Below, piece after piece: positions 10,044 to 55,887 of a stretch of DNA of 56,411 nucleotides. The translations under genes were made by a program, and so were the position numbers. Below the pieces are notes generated by a model. It saw only the letters and a program-made list of their open reading frames with translations. It did not search any database and had not been told where the DNA came from. This DNA is from a virus (lineage: Duplodnaviria; Caudoviricetes): IMG/VR virus record IMGVR_UViG_3300032893_000056, positions 1-56,411 of that record; one strand, 5' to 3'. Each line of letters opens with the position of its first letter. The stretch's first letter is position 1.

Positions 10044-11282
10044 TCACAGGTCCACATACCTACCACGTTCAGGATCTAGAAGTGCCTCCCAGCGTGCATG
10101 TCTCATATTGGAATCAGAATCTTCATCACCAATGAGTTTATTCTTACTCAAATGGAGATATCGTAGATTCTCATAACCAATGTCATTCACCTTCCCTATC
10201 CCGAGTATCCAGTCTGCTTCGGCCTGTTTACTCGTCTTGGCATTGGCTACATTTGCCATAGTAAGCCATCTCTGACCCTCACCTGAGCCATCAGCTTGAC
10301 ATACACCAATGATGGGGCAGTACTTCTTAGCTAACTCACGAGCCCAGATGTAGATAGAGCCAAGTCGGAGATCTTCCCGATCATTATCAAATCCCTTCAC
10401 CTTATCTATCTGATCAAATACAATCAATGAAGGTTTATGTTTATCAATCAAGCGTTCAATCTGAACTTTTGAAGCAGATACGATATCGACAATCTTGAGT
10501 CGTCCTTTGATGATCTCTTGGAATCGTTCTCCATTACCTTTTACATCTCTCATCAATTCTGTAAGAGTCAGATTCAGAACTGACTGGTAGCACCGAAGCA
10601 TCACCTTATTAGATTGCTCTTCATTGTTTAGCCAGAGGATGGGTCCTTCGGCGTGCTGAGCCATATATGTAACTTCACTAGCCAAGAACGTAGTTTTACC
10701 AGTCTCCGGTCTCGCAAAGATAAAGCCGAAGTCTCCTTTACGAAGTGATCCAAGAGCTTTATTAAGAGAGTTAAGACGAAATCTAAGGCCCGCCACAGTA
10801 TGACTTGAAGCAATAAGCTCCCCAAGGTCATCAGATGTGAAAGTAATTTCACCGGAATCTTCATCGTTAGCATCCTCGCTATTTGTTGATAGTCCCTCCA
10901 TTAGCTTGAGCACATCAGAGACGCCCTTCCTGCCGTCCGCAGCATCGTAGGCTAGTACGGATAGCTCCCGAAGCTTGTGGGCCGTCTGGAGGCCTTCTAT
11001 GAGCTTCAGAGTGCTATCGACACTGGAGTCGTTCTCCTTCAGAGCTTGGAACACCTCGGTGTAGTACTCACCCTTCTGTCTCGGTGTGGCGAAGAACAGG
11101 TTACTGAGATCATCAACGGATAGATCCACCGGATCATCTGTAGATTTAAAATATCCATCGAGAGTTGTGATTACTGGATATAGTTCCTTGGTAAGATACT
11201 CCAGTTTTATGTTATCTCGGTAAGCCTCGTAAAACTCTTTGGAGCACAGGTGTTTAATAATCGATAGATTCATATCTCCCAT
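10044..11282 (-). CDS. DnaB-like (SF4) replicative helicase
   Basis: Walker A ARPETGKT, NNEE, Walker B IVFDQ, VCQAD, SKNK. Confidence 0.9.
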   Translation of the reverse strand: MGDMNLSIIKHLCSKEFYEAYRDNIKLEYLTKELYPVITTLDGYFKSTDDPVDLSVDDLSNLFFATPRQKGEYYTEVFQALKENDSSVDSTLKLIEGLQTAHKLRELSVLAYDAADGRKGVSDVLKLMEGLSTNSEDANDEDSGEITFTSDDLGELIASSHTVAGLRFRLNSLNKALGSLRKGDFGFIFARPETGKTTFLASEVTYMAQHAEGPILWLNNEEQSNKVMLRCYQSVLNLTLTELMRDVKGNGERFQEIIKGRLKIVDIVSASKVQIERLIDKHKPSLIVFDQIDKVKGFDNDREDLRLGSIYIWARELAKKYCPIIGVCQADGSGEGQRWLTMANVANAKTSKQAEADWILGIGKVNDIGYENLRYLHLSKNKLIGDEDSDSNMRHARWEALLDPERGRYVDL

Positions 11283-11712
11283 TCACAAGAGTTTTATTTT
11301 TAAGATACTCTTCAACTGCTGCACGAACTTGTCGAGGGGTAAAAGAGGCACGCCTAACGGGTGCTGTTTGCGTAGGCTTCTGATCGAGGATATCACCTAC
11401 TTGTTTGAAGTGCTCCACCCGATCTTCGGTAGCCATAGCTTTGAGGTTGGACCAAGCGAGATTACGTGGGTTACCATCCTTGTATCCAATCAGGTGATCT
11501 GGCCATTCACCTGTAGCCATGAACCAAGCCAGCTTGGGTCCGTGAAACTTCTCACCGTTGAAGGTGATACAGAGATACCCATTAATGGAAAAGGAACCCG
11601 CAGTTTCACTGCGACCTTTTCGATGGTTTACCCAATAAAAATTACCAGTATCTTCTTCATATTTTATTTCTTTAAGAAGATTATATAGATTACTATTATA
11701 TGTTTTAATAAT
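11254..11712 (-). CDS. Degenerate HNH-endonuclease-derived protein, apparent ATT start
   Basis: Frame is open upstream of the track ORF: YEEDTGNFYW..AGS..GY..I..GPKLAWFMATGEWP..IGYKDGNPRNLAWSNL; AAGGA 8 nt before ATT. Confidence 0.6.
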   Translation of the reverse strand: MIKTYNSNLYNLLKEIKYEEDTGNFYWVNHRKGRSETAGSFSINGYLCITFNGEKFHGPKLAWFMATGEWPDHLIGYKDGNPRNLAWSNLKAMATEDRVEHFKQVGDILDQKPTQTAPVRRASFTPRQVRAAVEEYLKNKTLVNGRYESIDY

Positions 11713-11744
11713 CTTTTTATTCCTTTATATAAACTACCTGAACC

Positions 11745-11797
11745 GAAGAAAGAAAAACAGAAGAAGTTAAATTTTTTCTTCTGTAAAAAGAAAGAAG
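11745..11797 (-). other. Mirror-repeat-flanked hairpin element, copy 1
   Basis: gaagaaagaaaaa (11745-57) / aaaaagaaagaag (11785-97) exact mirror around the cagaagaa..ttcttctg stem. Confidence 0.8.
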
Positions 11798-11804
11798 ACT
11801 ATTG

Positions 11805-11833
11805 ATGGTATATATTCTTGATCACTTTGTCAA
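11805..11833 (-). promoter_or_regulatory. sigma70 promoter P1
   Basis: TTGACA-aagtgatcaagaatata(17)-TACCAT. Confidence 0.8.
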
Positions 11834-11894
11834 GCATACTAGGGTATCTACCTACTCGACACCCTAGCTGCTCTACCATCAGACGTACATTATC

Positions 11895-12242
11895 TCACAT
11901 CTCTACAGGTTTGTCAATCCCCTCCTTGCGCTCGATCTCGGCTTTGCGGGCGGCGTCTATCGCGGCATCCCACTGGCCCCACGGCGTCGAGAGCATGATC
12001 CTTTGCTGGTCTGGAATGCTCGAACGCATCTTTAGCCACCTATACCGCTCCGCGTCCTCCGCGTCGCTCAGCGCTGCTTGCGATGCTGCCGCGCGGGCTT
12101 GCCATGCCTTCCATGATGCTCGTGCAGCCGGGTACGCATATTCATCGCTGTTGTGAGCGCTACGCACGATGCTAATGGCTTCGTTGAGCGCCCATGCCTC
12201 AAACGCCGCCCGCTTGCCGTCCTTCATCGTTTCATTGGTCAT
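11895..12242 (-). CDS. Hypothetical protein, GC-rich, resembling temperate-phage accessory proteins
   Basis: RAAFEAWA..WKAWQARAA..DAERYRWLK..DAAIDAAR; visibly higher GC than the flanks. Confidence 0.7.
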   Translation of the reverse strand: MTNETMKDGKRAAFEAWALNEAISIVRSAHNSDEYAYPAARASWKAWQARAAASQAALSDAEDAERYRWLKMRSSIPDQQRIMLSTPWGQWDAAIDAARKAEIERKEGIDKPVEM

Positions 12243-12388
12243 TGGTTGTCCTCCTGCCAGTCCATCTCTCCATCCACGTATCCCTCGATCCACTCCCAGA
12301 AGCGATCGTCGTCAGCCTCGTAAGGATTAGATTCTTCGGACTCACCATGATACCCAGCATAGTGCCCTTCATTGTATACGCGTGTCAT
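12239..12388 (-). CDS. Rmf/CrpP-fold small protein
   Basis: YNEGHYAGYHG....NPY......WEWIEGY matches the Rmf pattern GY.AG..G.....CPY......W..GW. Confidence 0.6.
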   Translation of the reverse strand: MTRVYNEGHYAGYHGESEESNPYEADDDRFWEWIEGYVDGEMDWQEDNQ

Positions 12389-12395
12389 ATAGATC

Positions 12396-12734
12396 TTACT
12401 CATCCGGTATAACTGCACGGTGTCCAACATTCCTCTCAAGAGCCTTAGCACAATGATCCTTTTGGAAGATGGCTAGGAAAGAACACATCCGGCATCCCCA
12501 CCCCCATCGAGGATACAGTAGACTCTGTTCATATGCCTGAGCCTTCGCAGAACGGCTTGAGATCGTCTCGTCGGGGTCACCCCCTAGGATGGTATTACCC
12601 AAGCAGTCCAACGTCACCAAGACGTTTTTAACGTACCCGTCGTCTTTGCTGTACTGATAGAGTCCGAAGGGAGACTTCACCAGTCGGGCTGCTGCGATGG
12701 TACAGTTTTTGATATAGAGTACCACTTTGTTCAT
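12396..12734 (-). CDS. Conserved phage hypothetical protein
   Basis: LD.LGNT.LGGDPDETISSR..W..C.FL..F.KDHC. Confidence 0.65.
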   Translation of the reverse strand: MNKVVLYIKNCTIAAARLVKSPFGLYQYSKDDGYVKNVLVTLDCLGNTILGGDPDETISSRSAKAQAYEQSLLYPRWGWGCRMCSFLAIFQKDHCAKALERNVGHRAVIPDE

Positions 12735-12874
12735 CGCTTTGTTTGCCTCTCCAGATAAGCTTTAAAATCCTTTTCATCGGTATCTTCAATAATCTCTTCT
12801 TCCTTTTTATCCGGAAGGGGATGGCCCAATACTACAGGAGAATCATTACTGTTGTCTTGGTTTGAATGCGTCAT
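12731..12874 (-). CDS. Small acidic hypothetical protein (47 aa)
   Basis: Read manually; ATGA overlap with the next gene. Confidence 0.5.
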   Translation of the reverse strand: MTHSNQDNSNDSPVVLGHPLPDKKEEEIIEDTDEKDFKAYLERQTKR

Positions 12875-12933
12875 ATAATACCTTTAAAATAAGAATGGTT
12901 AATACAAACTTACCAAGATAATCCCAGAATAAA

Positions 12934-13593
12934 TCACTTGACAGGAGTTGCAATATTGATGCCATAAGGAGTTTCACCAAAACCTTGAGGGTTAAAAATG
13001 GCTTCTGCTTGTCCCAAAACACAACCTTCTTCAGTATCGATTACTGCTCCACCACTATTTCCCGGAAGAATCTTGGCATCCAGAATAATCACACCGTCAT
13101 TATCGGGCTTCTGAATATATCCAAAGGACATACTATCCATAACCCCATATGGTGCTCCCATAATGGCGATAAACTCTCCGTAATAAGGTTTGAATGTACA
13201 AACTTTGAGGCCCGAGACCACGTGACTTGTGTCCGTTTTCGGAATGAGTGTGGCAAAATCCTCCTTATCAGCATCAACGGTACTTACCCAATCAGTTTTC
13301 CAAAGCTCTATTGTCTTATCCGAGAAATACACAACCACTTCGTGTTCTCCCGGATGGAAGTCAAAACAGTGTGCAGCCGTGTGAATCTTTCCATCTTTTG
13401 CACTGATCCAACCAGAACATACGGCTCCGCCATCCGTCTCAAACTGCACCACATTCTCTTGTAACTGCGTCAATGTGGGAGGTTGATGACTGTTGATATA
13501 GTTAACTTCCACCTTCTGATGAATACCAATAGCTACTAATACTGCGAATGAAAGTGCTCCAAGAAAGGAACCGAATTTGATAAGAGTGTTCAT
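12934..13593 (-). CDS. Trypsin-like serine protease with N-terminal membrane anchor
   Basis: Hydrophobic N-terminal helix; TAAHC, EDFA, PGNSGG catalytic triad motifs. Confidence 0.85.
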   Translation of the reverse strand: MNTLIKFGSFLGALSFAVLVAIGIHQKVEVNYINSHQPPTLTQLQENVVQFETDGGAVCSGWISAKDGKIHTAAHCFDFHPGEHEVVVYFSDKTIELWKTDWVSTVDADKEDFATLIPKTDTSHVVSGLKVCTFKPYYGEFIAIMGAPYGVMDSMSFGYIQKPDNDGVIILDAKILPGNSGGAVIDTEEGCVLGQAEAIFNPQGFGETPYGINIATPVK

Positions 13594-27493: not shown

Positions 27494-27697
27494 TTAATGC
27501 TCCTCAATGAGACAACCGATGGTACGCATTCCGGCTTGTTCGAATGATTGACCGTTAGCAAACCGATAGGCATTCCACCATGCAGCGTTTGAACGCCGGG
27601 ACAGATCAGCGAACGGCTTTACAAGGTTACCGAAGTCATCCACTACGGAATGCCAATCGACGTCAACCGGGACATACTTGAAGTGAGTAAGGATCAT
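27494..27697 (-). CDS. First early gene, hypothetical
   Basis: AGGAGG RBS; promoter just upstream. Confidence 0.65.
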   Translation of the reverse strand: MILTHFKYVPVDVDWHSVVDDFGNLVKPFADLSRRSNAAWWNAYRFANGQSFEQAGMRTIGCLIEEH

Positions 27698-27722
27698 ATA
27701 CCCTCCTGTTGAACATGACTAC

Positions 27723-27732
27723 ATCTTAGCAC
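27723..27732 (-). promoter_or_regulatory. Extended -10 early promoter
   Basis: TG-c-TAAGAT ~25 nt upstream of the first early gene. Confidence 0.5.
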
Positions 27733-27836
27733 AAATACAGGGAAGTGCATCAGGGAATACCCTAGGATTGGGTTAGTTTGAACATGCAAACTCGGGTGTT
27801 ATGGGTCTGACGAGCACCTATGGACGGATGAGCTAA

Positions 27837-27878
27837 CTCATTGATTATCATTCTCAGCTCGTAATAACAATCATTCTC
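27837..27878. promoter_or_regulatory. Two tandem Fur-box-like sequences
   Basis: ctcattgattatcattctc (13/19) and cgtaataacaatcattctc (14/19) vs GATAATGATAATCATTATC. Confidence 0.4.
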
Positions 27879-28112
27879 ATCTAGCGCACCCTCTTTTTCT
27901 TCTTAAAAATACCATCTCTTTGAAGGGGGGATGGGGGGAAAACCCGAAGGCTCGAAAAGCTCGAAAGGATGGATGCTACATTTTTATATATTTTTGAAAG
28001 GAGGGGATGTCTTAGTATTTACCCTTAGTTATCTATTCTTTACCCACTGAGGAGCTCGGATCAAAAAACCGATCCTCGCAAGCTCGAAGAGCTAATACTA
28101 AAACCTTCAAAC

Positions 28113-28177
28113 AGAAAGAAGAAACAGAAGTTGTAGTTTTTTTTAATTTAAACTACTTCTTCTGTAAAGAAGAAAGA
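28113..28177 (-). other. Mirror-repeat-flanked hairpin element, copy 2
   Basis: agaaagaagaaa (28113-24) / aaagaagaaaga (28166-77) exact mirror around the cagaag-tt-gtagttt..aaactac-tt-cttctg stem. Confidence 0.8.
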
Positions 28178-28184
28178 ACTTATA

Positions 28185-28213
28185 ATGGTATATATTCTTA
28201 ATGCATTTGTCAA
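28185..28213 (-). promoter_or_regulatory. sigma70 promoter P2
   Basis: TTGACA-aatgcattaagaatata(17)-TACCAT. Confidence 0.8.
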
Positions 28214-28261: not shown

Positions 28262-28290
28262 TTGACAAATCGATCAAGATAGTATATAAT
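28262..28290 (+). promoter_or_regulatory. Consensus sigma70 promoter P3 for the morphogenesis arm
   Basis: TTGACA-aatcgatcaagatagta(17)-TATAAT. Confidence 0.9.
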
Positions 28291-53240: not shown

Positions 53241-53785
53241 ACAACATGAAGATGAGTCAGAACGGTCTCAACTTGATCGAGACCTCTGAAGGATGCCGCA
53301 CTACTGCCTACCAAGACAGTGTGGGTGTCTGGACAATCGGATATGGACATACATCTAATGTATCTCCTGGGGAGACTTGCACGTTGCAGCAAGCCCAAGA
53401 GTGGCTTCAACAAGACGTATCAGGGGCAGAATATGTGGTCAATACGGTTGTTAAAGCGCCTCTCAATCAGAACCAGTTTGATGCTCTTGTGGATTTTGTA
53501 TTCAATCTTGGCAGCGGTAACTTTCAGAGTTCTACACTTCTCAAGCTCCTCAATGCGGGAGATTACCAGGGTGCATCGAATGAGTTCCCCAAGTGGAATC
53601 ACGCAGGGGGAGTAGTGGAGCCGGGCCTCACAACCCGGCGGTTGGCTGAACAGAAATTGTTCAACACACCCATTACTTTGCCCACCACAACTTCAGCACA
53701 AACAGGAGCAACGCAATCGCCAACGCTAGTAGAGCAACTTCAAACATGGGTTCAAGCCCTCCAAGGTAAGTTTAGTTCCAAATAA
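53237..53785 (+). CDS. Endolysin, GH24 phage lysozyme
   Basis: EG....AYQD..GVWTIGYGHT, NQFDALV.F.FN.G, S.LL..LN, W..AGG....GL..RR.AE..LF. Confidence 0.92.
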   Translation: MNNMKMSQNGLNLIETSEGCRTTAYQDSVGVWTIGYGHTSNVSPGETCTLQQAQEWLQQDVSGAEYVVNTVVKAPLNQNQFDALVDFVFNLGSGNFQSSTLLKLLNAGDYQGASNEFPKWNHAGGVVEPGLTTRRLAEQKLFNTPITLPTTTSAQTGATQSPTLVEQLQTWVQALQGKFSSK

Positions 53786-53787
53786 AT

Positions 53788-53811
53788 AAGGCCCCGAAAG
53801 GGGCCTTTTTC
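53788..53811. terminator. Bidirectional terminator (copy B)
   Basis: Same hairpin as 55-78. Confidence 0.9.
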
Positions 53812-53812
53812 T

Positions 53813-53968
53813 CTACAGTTCCTCGTCTCCCTCATCCACGATCTCGATATCTTTGTACCAAGTAACTCGAAGAAGTCCGATATCAGCATTCACTCCAAAT
53901 CCCAGAGTCTCATTGTCAAAATATTCGAGACCCACACTCGCACCCTTAATCAGTTGCCAAGTAATCAT
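53813..53968 (-). CDS. Small hypothetical protein (copy B of 80..235)
   Basis: Same protein, synonymous changes. Confidence 0.75.
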   Translation of the reverse strand: MITWQLIKGASVGLEYFDNETLGFGVNADIGLLRVTWYKDIEIVDEGDEEL

Positions 53969-53982
53969 GCTTCATGTCTCCG

Positions 53983-55887
53983 TTAGAGCCATTCACACGC
54001 ACCGGAGGTGCATGAGAGTTCTTGGGCTCCGTTAGTTGTATCTTCAGCTTTCTCATAACCATCGAACATGTTCCAATCGATCGACGGGAAGTTCGCGGCT
54101 AATTGTTGATAGTCCGCTTCGGAAATATCTTGGTAAGGAGCTTGCTGATATACGTGCTCGCTGTGCGGAAGGAATGATACACCACCCACATCATCCAAGT
54201 GCTTATATACCCAAGCGCCAACATCCATCCATTCATTTTCTTTTACGTACACAGTAATAGAAGGATTGTGTTCACACCAATGACGCTTAAAAAGAAGGTA
54301 ATGGTCAAGCTGTTCAATGGCAGACCGATCACTCCGCACAAGGCTGCCGCTAGGAGAACGGACAGGAAAACTGAACACAAGGTTCGAAGCGTTAGTAACG
54401 TCCGGTTCACAAGGAACCCCTTGGTCTTTTAGAAAAGTAGCAAGAGGGTCTTTAACATCAGCACGAACAGTTCTGATATAATACGGATTATGACGCGGAT
54501 GGATGCCACTAGCAGAATCAACAAGCTGACTGACAGTACCAGAAGGCTTAACGGTAGTGATAGCAGCACTCTGAGGAATACCCAAGGTGGCTGCCCATTG
54601 TTTGTTGGTTTCAACCGCATGATTCTTCATACGCTCCAATGTATCAGCGAGCAGACGCCCACTGTGATCACTAACGCTACCGTTAAGAATGGGATTGTCC
54701 ATGATGCCAGTAAGGCTAACACCCAGGAGACGCTCTTCTTCAGCATTTACCCTCCAAGCTTTTCGGAGGTATCGGAAGTCGGTGAGAGTTGATTGAAAGG
54801 TTCCGAGAATCGTAGCGAGTTCGACTTTGCTGCACAAAGTCTCGACTGTATCTCCAGCTCGTACAATAACCTCGCTAAGATTGCAGAAGCCATTGGGTCG
54901 TAGGATGATCTCACCGCAAGGGTTCGTTCCAAACTCCCAATCCAATTCTCTACGTCCTGTAGAGCCTGCTTGGCGCTTTGCAGATACGCGATTAAAAATG
55001 CCTCGCTCACCGGACTTACTTTCATATAGTGCGTGCCACTCCTTCATAAAGATACCGATATCTGGCTTTTCCGTGTAGGCTACGCTGTTATTAGCCAGAG
55101 CACGGTGACCACTAGACTCCCACCAAGCGCCGTTCTTGGCGTTACGCATACGCTCGTCTGTGAGGTTAGACAGGCTAATAAGAGCACTCCGACGCACACC
55201 CCCAACAACCACGATCTGAGCAATCTTGCAAACAAGGTCATGACATTCCAGAGAGTTTAGCTTTCGTCCGACTGCATTCCTAAAAAGATTGACTGTGAAG
55301 CTAAATAGGTCAATAAGGGGTGCAGGTCCGGATGCTCGTCCACCAAACGTTTTAAGTCGAGCCCCCGCAGGTCGTACACGAGACGTATCCCACTTGGCCA
55401 CCTGACCAGCATATAGTAGGGAAACCAACTGCCGGAAAGCAGAAGCCCATCCCTGTTTAGAATCTGCGACAACGATAACAGTATCCGAGTTATGGAGCGT
55501 GTCCGGGATTTCCGGTAGCTTGTTGATGTATTGTCGTTCGACACTGAATCCTACTCCTGTTCCGTTCATTAATACGAACATAACTTCTGAGAATGCTGCT
55601 TGATCGTCAATGGGCAGATAGGAACAGTTATATCCTGCGATATTATCCCGTTCCAAGGCAGGTCCTGCCGTCATTAGTGCGCGCATGCTAGGAACTACGT
55701 CAAGATTATAAATACCCTCGAAGACCCTTTGGTATGGGAATACGTCCCCATACCGGCCTGCCCAGAAGTCACAGTAACGGGTAACGGTCTCGACCCACGT
55801 TTCTCGACGACCCTCTTGCTGAAGCCATCTGGCGTAGCGACTACGAAATACATACTCTTGGAGATCGGTGTTAAAGTGTTTCGTCAT
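53983..55887 (-). CDS. nrdJ: Class II ribonucleotide reductase, allele B
   Basis: TNPCGEI, TVKPSGTVS, C-terminal CTSGAC; 634 aa vs 629 aa for allele A. Confidence 0.92.
   Translation of the reverse strand: MTKHFNTDLQEYVFRSRYARWLQQEGRRETWVETVTRYCDFWAGRYGDVFPYQRVFEGIYNLDVVPSMRALMTAGPALERDNIAGYNCSYLPIDDQAAFSEVMFVLMNGTGVGFSVERQYINKLPEIPDTLHNSDTVIVVADSKQGWASAFRQLVSLLYAGQVAKWDTSRVRPAGARLKTFGGRASGPAPLIDLFSFTVNLFRNAVGRKLNSLECHDLVCKIAQIVVVGGVRRSALISLSNLTDERMRNAKNGAWWESSGHRALANNSVAYTEKPDIGIFMKEWHALYESKSGERGIFNRVSAKRQAGSTGRRELDWEFGTNPCGEIILRPNGFCNLSEVIVRAGDTVETLCSKVELATILGTFQSTLTDFRYLRKAWRVNAEEERLLGVSLTGIMDNPILNGSVSDHSGRLLADTLERMKNHAVETNKQWAATLGIPQSAAITTVKPSGTVSQLVDSASGIHPRHNPYYIRTVRADVKDPLATFLKDQGVPCEPDVTNASNLVFSFPVRSPSGSLVRSDRSAIEQLDHYLLFKRHWCEHNPSITVYVKENEWMDVGAWVYKHLDDVGGVSFLPHSEHVYQQAPYQDISEADYQQLAANFPSIDWNMFDGYEKAEDTTNGAQELSCTSGACEWL

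Follow-up and report, generated by a model that had tools for sequence, protein, structure and literature searches.

Two sites in the viral DNA analysed here (the window, G000, a complete virus record of 56.4 kb) were found, as judged by their sequence, each to consist of a sigma-70-type promoter and, near the presumed start site, a T-rich homopyrimidine mirror repeat that is split by a hairpin; in related phages the arms change in pairs and the mirror symmetry is kept, and this covariation in the sequences strongly suggests selection on a triplex. An earlier note on this DNA had described both copies and proposed that their transcripts clamp the template strand in a triplex that primes replication or attenuates transcription. 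The observation was confirmed and extended to what appears from sequence comparison to be a conserved family, and the interpretation seems partly supported.

Up to ~28 kb the genes of the window are on the minus strand; from 28.4 kb onwards their orientation is plus. Copies 1 and 2 were both located in the form in which they had been described (Table 1), and the promoter TTGACA-17-TACCAT reported for them is present at each (score 10/12); its strand is minus, so that 'downstream' means leftward and the arms are pyrimidine tracts in the RNA and the non-template strand. Both copies, read in the transcribed direction, have the order promoter, 7 nt, pyrimidine arm 1, A, hairpin, arm 2, and the first T of arm 2 is able to pair with the A that precedes the stem (this one-T offset, and the stem base common to both copies, had been given correctly). 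The first base of arm 1 in copy 1 is 7 nt past the -10 hexamer, which would place it at about +1 to +3 of the predicted RNA. Similarity between the two copies extends from the -35 hexamer through arm 2 and no further. The spacers between the arms are 27 nt (copy 1) and 41 nt (copy 2) long; elements including arms (55 and 67 nt) had predicted folds of -9.1 and -14.1 kcal/mol, respectively, and comparison with 200 shuffles gave z = -2.44 (2/200 as good) and z = -2.82 (1/200) for the two hairpins. The hairpin cores have AT-rich stems (-8.6 and -13.6 kcal/mol) followed by a U tract, and neither copy was listed by a terminator scan. In Rfam no family reached its gathering score (MIR162_1, 19 bits vs 75; RsaOG, 21.2 bits vs 50).

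Table 1. Positions of the two elements and of neighbouring features in the window.
Feature	Position	Strand	Remarks
DnaB-like replicative helicase	10044..11282	-	next gene downstream of the HNH_3-like frame
HNH_3-like open frame	11254..11724	-	first gene past copy 1; 24.7 bits vs cut-off 24.8
Copy 1, arm GAAGAAAGAAAAA	11745-11757	+	
Copy 1, inverted repeat cagaagaa...ttcttctg + t	11758-11784	+	
Copy 1, arm AAAAAGAAAGAAG	11785-11797	+	exact 13-nt mirror
Copy 1, -35 TTGACA	11828..11833	-	
Copy 1, -10 TACCAT	11805..11810	-	within 15-mer AAGAATATATACCAT (11805-11819)
Copy 1, arm 1, sense CTTCTTTCTTTTT	11785..11797	-	
Copy 1, hairpin A-CAGAAGAA / TTCTTCTG-T	11758..11784	-	9 pairs
Copy 1, arm 2, sense TTTTTCTTTCTTC	11745..11757	-	exact mirror of copy 1 arm 1
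Tandem upstream promoter TTGACA-17-GATAAT with TG	11889..11917	-	11/12; 84 nt upstream of copy 1 promoter
Non-coding leader, ~415 nt	27698..28112	-	between copy 2 and first leftward ORF (27494-27697)
Copy 2, arm AGAAAGAAGAAA	28113-28124	+	
Copy 2, hairpin region	28125-28165	+	
Copy 2, arm AAAGAAGAAAGA	28166-28177	+	exact 12-nt mirror
Copy 2, -35 TTGACA	28208..28213	-	
Copy 2, -10 TACCAT	28185..28190	-	
Copy 2, arm 1, sense TCTTTCTTCTTT	28166..28177	-	
Copy 2, hairpin	28125..28165	-	stem base ACAGAAG/CTTCTGT as in copy 1, AA/AA internal loop, 7-pair upper stem
Copy 2, arm 2, sense TTTCTTCTTTCT	28113..28124	-	exact mirror of copy 2 arm 1
Divergent promoter TTGACA-17-TATAAT	28262..28290	+	12/12; faces terminase genes

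Copy 2 is situated at the head of the leftward early operon, where early and late genes diverge, opposite a rightward consensus promoter and the terminase genes, and its leader contains a block conserved in the relatives G001-G003. Inside this non-coding block (TTTCGAGCTTTT ... TTTTCCCCCC), ~190 nt downstream of copy 2, is a G6-T-G6 / C6-A-C6 motif (window 27922-27942, + strand GAAGGGGGGA-T-GGGGGGAAAA), itself a purine-pyrimidine mirror repeat, which is present too in L119, L120, L123, L146 and L156 and may belong to an origin, to a packaging site or to a structured RNA. Copy 1 is located behind a second, stronger tandem promoter and precedes the HNH_3-like frame and the DnaB-like helicase, in agreement with its earlier placement just upstream of HNH-like, helicase and polymerase genes; tandem promoters are likewise found before the copy 1-type element in G001, G002 and G003. 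After the strong tandem promoter of the window, and just upstream of the copy 1 promoter, a hairpin CTAGGGT...ACCCTAG was seen (tandem promoter and hairpin together at 11838-11917, minus strand). The HNH_3-like frame has no ATG, GTG or TTG before 11520 (residue 69 of the open frame), and an ATT was noticed by eye 8-9 nt after AAGGA; its orthologues in G001-G003 have an ATG start 20-30 nt past arm 2. Positions 1-2100 and 53734-55836, at the two ends of the record, represent diverged versions of one sequence (identity of successive blocks, 93%, 86%, 80% and 74%) with a spacing of ~53.74 kb, near the genome length of relatives (52-55 kb), which looks like a circular or concatemeric assembly running into a second strain and not like a true terminal repeat.

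No close DNA relatives were found in the phage collection (megablast with window 11000-13000). Two sequencing runs were located for this phage, both of wetland metagenome DNA, and no RNA run is listed for it. The nearest isolate and only cultured relative, Alcaligenes phage vB_Af_QDWS535 (~49-55% protein identity), has no such element. By annotation, its early arm (L285, 35557-39905) carries an ATP-grasp / Gn_AT_II / amidoligase / COOH-NH2 ligase gene cluster. Sites were collected blind to symmetry with the pattern TTGACA-N28-34-Y10, which matched two sites only in the window (9 overlapping matches with 0.28 expected; 0/100 shuffles reached 9) and exactly two in each of the four complete genomes G000, G001, G002 and G003, at distances of 16,380, 16,707, 17,475 and 18,255 nt, respectively. 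The paired sites occupy the same two genomic positions in all four, namely the early/late divergent junction and the region upstream of the HNH-like gene and helicase, and arm 1 starts 3-7 nt past the -10 hexamer in 8/8 sites. The reversed pattern, used as a control, gave 0 matches in all genomes scanned; a fourth related record had one match, apparently in coding sequence, and a fifth had none because the promoter is further from the arm. Within each genome the two special promoters have a 15-16-mer in common (spacer end plus -10), which differs between genomes (AAGAATATATACCAT; TAAGATAGCATAAGAT; AAACTGTGTCAGGTT; AAAAYGTGTCAGAYT). In the window it is exact at 11805-11819 and 28185-28199 and is surrounded by flanks and arms that differ between the copies; it could have arisen through gene conversion over a very short stretch or through co-evolution with a factor specific to the phage. 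An IMG/VR scan for the 15-mer of the window returned chance matches only (0/115 stretches with TTGAC upstream or a pyrimidine-rich downstream region).

Protein-anchored IMG/VR searches yielded 141 loci, which were then scanned for exact polypurine mirrors. Many of them showed a sigma-70-like promoter, 6-9 nt, a pyrimidine arm, A, a hairpin and the mirror arm (arm length 15 nt in L123, 12 in L198, 11 in L224 and L254, 10 in L183 and L185, 9 in L179), and short-spacer variants without hairpin were also found (L118, 16-nt arms with a 7-nt spacer; L186, 5-nt spacer). Exact mirrors in relatives measured 8-16 nt overall. A second symmetry-blind retrieval, based on the conserved promoter and arm 1 and run over IMG/VR and a metagenome collection, gave 31 distinct sequences with new arm types in L547, L529 (4-nt spacer, no hairpin), L543 and L541; all 6/6 with the leader marker (C6..C5) have mirrors of at least 12 nt, and 3/25 others reach 8 nt. 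Classification of the metagenome matches by promoter geometry was dropped, and the leader marker used instead, because the classes were not clean (mirrors of at least 8 nt in 6/12 with good geometry and 3/19 without). Three further observations were made among the contigs. L186 (2896-2924) and L240 (2947-2974) have purine mirror repeats that are oppositely oriented, the purines being on the sense strand of the helicase; that of L186 is just upstream, not downstream, of a TTGACA-17-TATAAT promoter. The arm pair TCTTTCTTTTT / TTTTTCTTTCT around a 10-12 nt spacer (core GGCGCAAC) occurs in the otherwise different IMG/VR contigs L319, L357, L361, L475, L344 and L390 and may be the antisense of a lysine-rich coding motif. 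In L118 (~2843-2920) a tRNA-like sequence (gcccctttagctcagttggtagagca...) was seen by eye just upstream of a small-terminase-like gene.

Loss of the symmetry in homologues had been named in the earlier note as an outcome that would refute its proposal. The symmetry held: 8/8 promoter-proximal sites in the four complete genomes are exact mirrors of 9-15 nt with differing arm sequences, and the hairpin sequences differ as well. For 11 distinct arm types, cognate pairs were perfect in 11/11 and non-cognate pairs in 4/110, and 0/100,000 shuffles reached 11; the positions of the C's vary among the types, 9/11 are asymmetric, and in these the partner arm shows the C spacings in reverse and not in the same order. 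These 11 types stem partly from the mirror scan and are related by descent. The first concern is answered by the eight sites and the six marker-bearing sequences, which were picked without regard to symmetry, and the second by the number of different arm types at orthologous sites. As background, 500 adjacent pyrimidine-tract pairs in 1.03 Mb were compared and had no mirror bias (mirror better in 102, direct better in 123, ties in 275). Exact pyrimidine mirrors (9 nt or longer, spacer up to 60 nt) were also sought in five complete genomes; G000, G001 and G003 yielded only the two elements, and G002 the two elements plus one 9-nt extra. Identical arms were found around unrelated hairpins (L224 vs L254; G002b vs L514 vs window copy 2), so the hairpin is conserved in its structure, and the arms in their symmetry to each other. 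The dinucleotide CC is absent from 15/15 arm types vs 57.5% of 1,162 composition-matched background tracts; isolated C's are tolerated best by pyrimidine-motif triplexes. Among the IMG/VR matches listed for mirror and direct versions of an arm pair, most of which were low-complexity arrays or coding sequence, the spacer was at least 80% pyrimidine in 59/124 mirror and 50/130 direct cases, and a promoter at the right distance was found in 2 mirror and 0 direct cases.

Most members of the family have a hairpin-forming spacer of 15-41 nt, and spacers of at least 15 nt fold as hairpins with the sole exception of L150 (22-nt spacer, no predicted fold). In a comparison of strands for 11 hairpins, the sense strand was more stable in 6, the antisense strand in 4, and one was equal. 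Four sense-strand hairpins contain G.U pairs, a hint of a third strand supplied by a single-stranded sense molecule (RNA or non-template DNA); overall hairpin energies favour neither strand. Other explanations of the hairpin were rejected: a dimeric DNA-binding protein on the central palindrome, with the flanks read by shape, is unlikely as the hairpins differ between copies of one genome; folding of arm 2 onto its own hairpin stem as an intrastrand triplex would cover ~5 nt only in the window copies and none in G001a (by eye); and primase GTC sites, present in some hairpins and missing in others, are too short to be meaningful.

Mirror symmetry is meaningless to a protein that reads sequence and to Watson-Crick pairing; it is the condition for a pyrimidine strand to align in parallel with the purine strand at its own locus, either in H-DNA or with the transcript or displaced strand as third strand. 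Since a pyrimidine strand needs this symmetry to Hoogsteen-pair with its own locus, we infer that selection acts on a Py.Pu-Py triplex in which the arms pair with the purine strand of the template and which would form as H-DNA or with RNA arms. For arms of at least 12 nt, no exact purine target was found elsewhere in cis or in trans (five genomes), so that the triplex partner can only be the element's own DNA (template strand), and the earlier idea that the transcript clamps its own template fits this result. The purine tract between the tandem promoters was tried as a clamp target and rejected (loose fit in G002a by eye, no fit in the window).

Our preferred reading, put forward tentatively on the basis of the analysis above, is that each site may be a promoter with a triplex-prone unwinding element, similar to the T4 oriF/oriG R-loop origins, in which the mirror arms would lock the R-loop. 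The module would then resemble the origins of T4 (oriF/oriG), T7 (primary origin) and ColE1, in which a promoter is combined with an unwinding element: transcription starting at the promoter would open the element, pyrimidine RNA would remain hybridised to the purine template of one arm, and the freed pyrimidine strand (or the other RNA arm), returned by the hairpin, would bind as third strand and keep the rPy:dPu hybrid, which is the weakest hybrid type, from displacement. The R-loop held in this way would prime or license DNA synthesis in the leftward direction, carried out by the family A polymerase, primase and helicase of the phage. More doubtful is the full proposal, in which the nascent transcript, with its 5'-terminal arm, hairpin and mirror arm, or else the displaced non-template strand would clamp the purine template; locked in this way, the R-loop would serve as primer for replication from two fixed sites, and the triplex would be kept by selection in a phage clade.

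A DNA-level role coupled to transcription is favoured because of low duplex stability, (TA)n-like tracts in wider relatives and the T4 oriF/oriG-like layout. When 100-bp segments were ranked by nearest-neighbour free energy, the element loci were the two least stable in G000 and G001 and had ranks 1 and 3 in G002 and G005; in G003 one locus had rank 1, and the elements themselves were not extreme (0.4-1.1% of 100-bp segments less stable). Any intergenic region rich in AT is expected to have low duplex stability. At the equivalent junction of 13 relatives' loci (L124, L126, L128-L134, L145, L152, L153 and L170), (TA)n-like sequence of 60-100 nt with 75-99% A+T comes directly after a consensus leftward promoter, and (TA)n is another classic supercoil-sensitive, easily melted structure. 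At T4 oriF/oriG, according to the available text of PMC4412123, a promoter is combined with a downstream unwinding element and a persistent RNA-DNA hybrid primes synthesis; at sequence level the sites studied here likewise have the promoter directly upstream and low downstream duplex stability (weaker in G003). Against an origin, the 27-41 nt spacers are long for H-DNA, and hairpin extrusion would be needed. C+.G-C triplets require protonation, and the weakness of rPy:dPu hybrids likewise speaks against this reading, as do the absence of the element from the cultured relative vB_Af_QDWS535 and the mixed strand preference of the hairpins. A/T-rich leaders past strong promoters are common in the clade, some apparent cases being coding sequence. 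AT-rich 'leaders' upstream of the helicase in relatives were partly artefacts (the L229 tract is coding) and were not counted as support, and the GC-skew minimum near 28 kb is uninformative on an origin as it coincides with the switch in gene orientation. Also against an origin, no more than 20-30 nt separate the copy 1 type from a start codon whose gene lacks a clear Shine-Dalgarno (SD) sequence, so that a plain 5'-UTR role would be enough for that copy.

Such a role at the RNA level, in which single-stranded pyrimidine arms (S1/standby or RNA-binding protein site) and a 5' stabilising hairpin drive translation of SD-less genes, is an unlikely explanation of the family. It is consistent with the start codons ~12-30 nt past arm 2 without clear SD in G001b, G002a, G003a, L198, L224 and L254, set against the strong SDs of other genes (for example AGGAGG before 27697), with arms predicted to be unpaired in 3/8 leaders, and with the G.U pairs of the sense-strand hairpins; it leaves the exact mirror symmetry and its covariation without a reason, because RNA is read 5' to 3' by proteins, which would select direct and not mirror repeats, and the copy 2-type elements are 400-500 nt from the first ORF.

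Still less probable is an attenuator or small RNA, for which the hairpin and the U-rich arm 2 would form a weak intrinsic terminator that releases a 45-65 nt RNA, or in which read-through would depend on UTP/CTP owing to the T runs in the initial transcribed region. Five to eight U's (U5-U8) stand directly past the hairpin in window copy 1, L123, L224, L254, G003b and L547, and T runs from about +2 are at a place of known reiterative transcription, as at pyrBI, codBA and upp. The stems are weak, however (-2.5 to -8.6 kcal/mol in 7/12 folded cores), the terminator scan passed over both window copies, L118, L186 and L529 with their short spacers have no hairpin at all, the long operons must also be expressed from these promoters, and the upstream arm and the mirror symmetry remain unexplained.

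To about the same degree improbable is a self-acting promoter switch with no replication role, in which H-DNA, or the transcript as third strand on +2..+55 of its own duplex, would block escape or elongation and so provide negative feedback or supercoiling control. It shares with the preferred origin reading the evidence from symmetry and from the element's own DNA as target, the position of arm 1 close behind the -10 hexamer in 8/8 sites would suit it, and the genome-specific 15-16-mer common to both promoters suggests a common special control; the (TA)n at the same place in wider relatives would go unexplained unless any supercoil-sensitive structure suffices, and no bacterial precedent was found in the open-access literature.

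That T-rich tracts beside a hairpin merely look mirrored, (CTT)n-like sequence being nearly self-symmetric, is very improbable and already largely refuted, for although 2/11 arm types (L150 and L198) are self-mirrors, all types hold direct sub-matches of 7-13 nt, and in IMG/VR one arm pair is common in its mirror as well as its direct version (at least 124 and at least 130, respectively), the remaining 9/11 are asymmetric with reversed C-spacing order in the partner, background tract pairs lack a mirror bias, and three of the genomes have no such repeats other than the elements.

It has long been asked if triplexes or H-DNA serve a selected function at all in bacteria or phages, and the evidence to date is biophysical or concerns genome instability. 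The evolutionary signal described here is of the kind used to prove RNA helices, in that paired changes hold the mirror symmetry across many phage genomes. If the reading as a triplex lock is true, this would be the first natural triplex element in a bacterial virus for which covariation speaks in the way it does for RNA helices. Should the element be an origin, it would also represent a new way of stabilising a primer R-loop and would locate origins in a large group of uncultured freshwater/wetland phages with T7-like replication proteins that use host RNA polymerase. The paired arm changes at two fixed promoter-adjacent places make triplex function directly testable with small constructs.

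The earlier statement that no phage element of this form has been described agrees with the open-access literature, in which no promoter-proximal mirror-repeat element of phages or bacteria was found. Lambda nut and HK022 put likewise are present in two copies per genome as hairpin-containing RNA elements just downstream of an early promoter; the family described here differs from them in having no boxA-like conserved sequence and hairpins that are not conserved even between the two copies of one genome, and nothing in nut or put requires mirror-symmetric flanks. ENE / MALAT1-type RNA triple helices share the two U-rich strands flanking a stem, which could clamp one purine strand by Watson-Crick and Hoogsteen pairing, whereas the element here has C in its arms, no purine-rich partner in cis or elsewhere on the sense strand, and no lower stem, which is impossible as arm 1 is at the RNA 5' end. 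The E. coli PIT / BoxC / TM intrastrand triplex repeats are also conserved bacterial sequences with triplex potential; as far as the available text of PMC4666352 goes, they are G/C-rich intergenic repeats in which a single strand carries blocks of both purines and pyrimidines; they show no strand bias, act neither as promoters nor as terminators, and have no link to phages. H-DNA motifs and 'H-loops' have in common with the elements the exact mirror arms, all purine on one strand and T-rich with isolated C's on the other, and the classical 4-7 nt spacers are found in L118, L186 and L529; most members, including both in the window, differ by the longer, hairpin-forming spacer (an inverted repeat that could extrude), by a fixed orientation to the promoter and by symmetry that is kept through covariation, for which no report on any phage or bacterial H-motif was found in the open-access literature. 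The T7 primary origin has its promoter(s) followed by an unwinding element next to replication genes, and its tandem promoters, reportedly phi1.1A/B, can be likened to the tandem promoters of copy 1. Compared with T4, T7 and ColE1, the promoters here are of host sigma-70 type, the plain AT-rich tract is replaced by a homopurine-homopyrimidine mirror repeat with hairpin, the G-rich RNA of ColE1 by an expected pyrimidine-rich RNA, and the origin role is a proposed one. What the two window elements share with T4 oriF(uvsY)/oriG(34), the T7 primary origin and ColE1 is a promoter directly before an easily melted element, at few sites per genome and beside replication genes (for the T4 layout, see the available text of PMC4412123).
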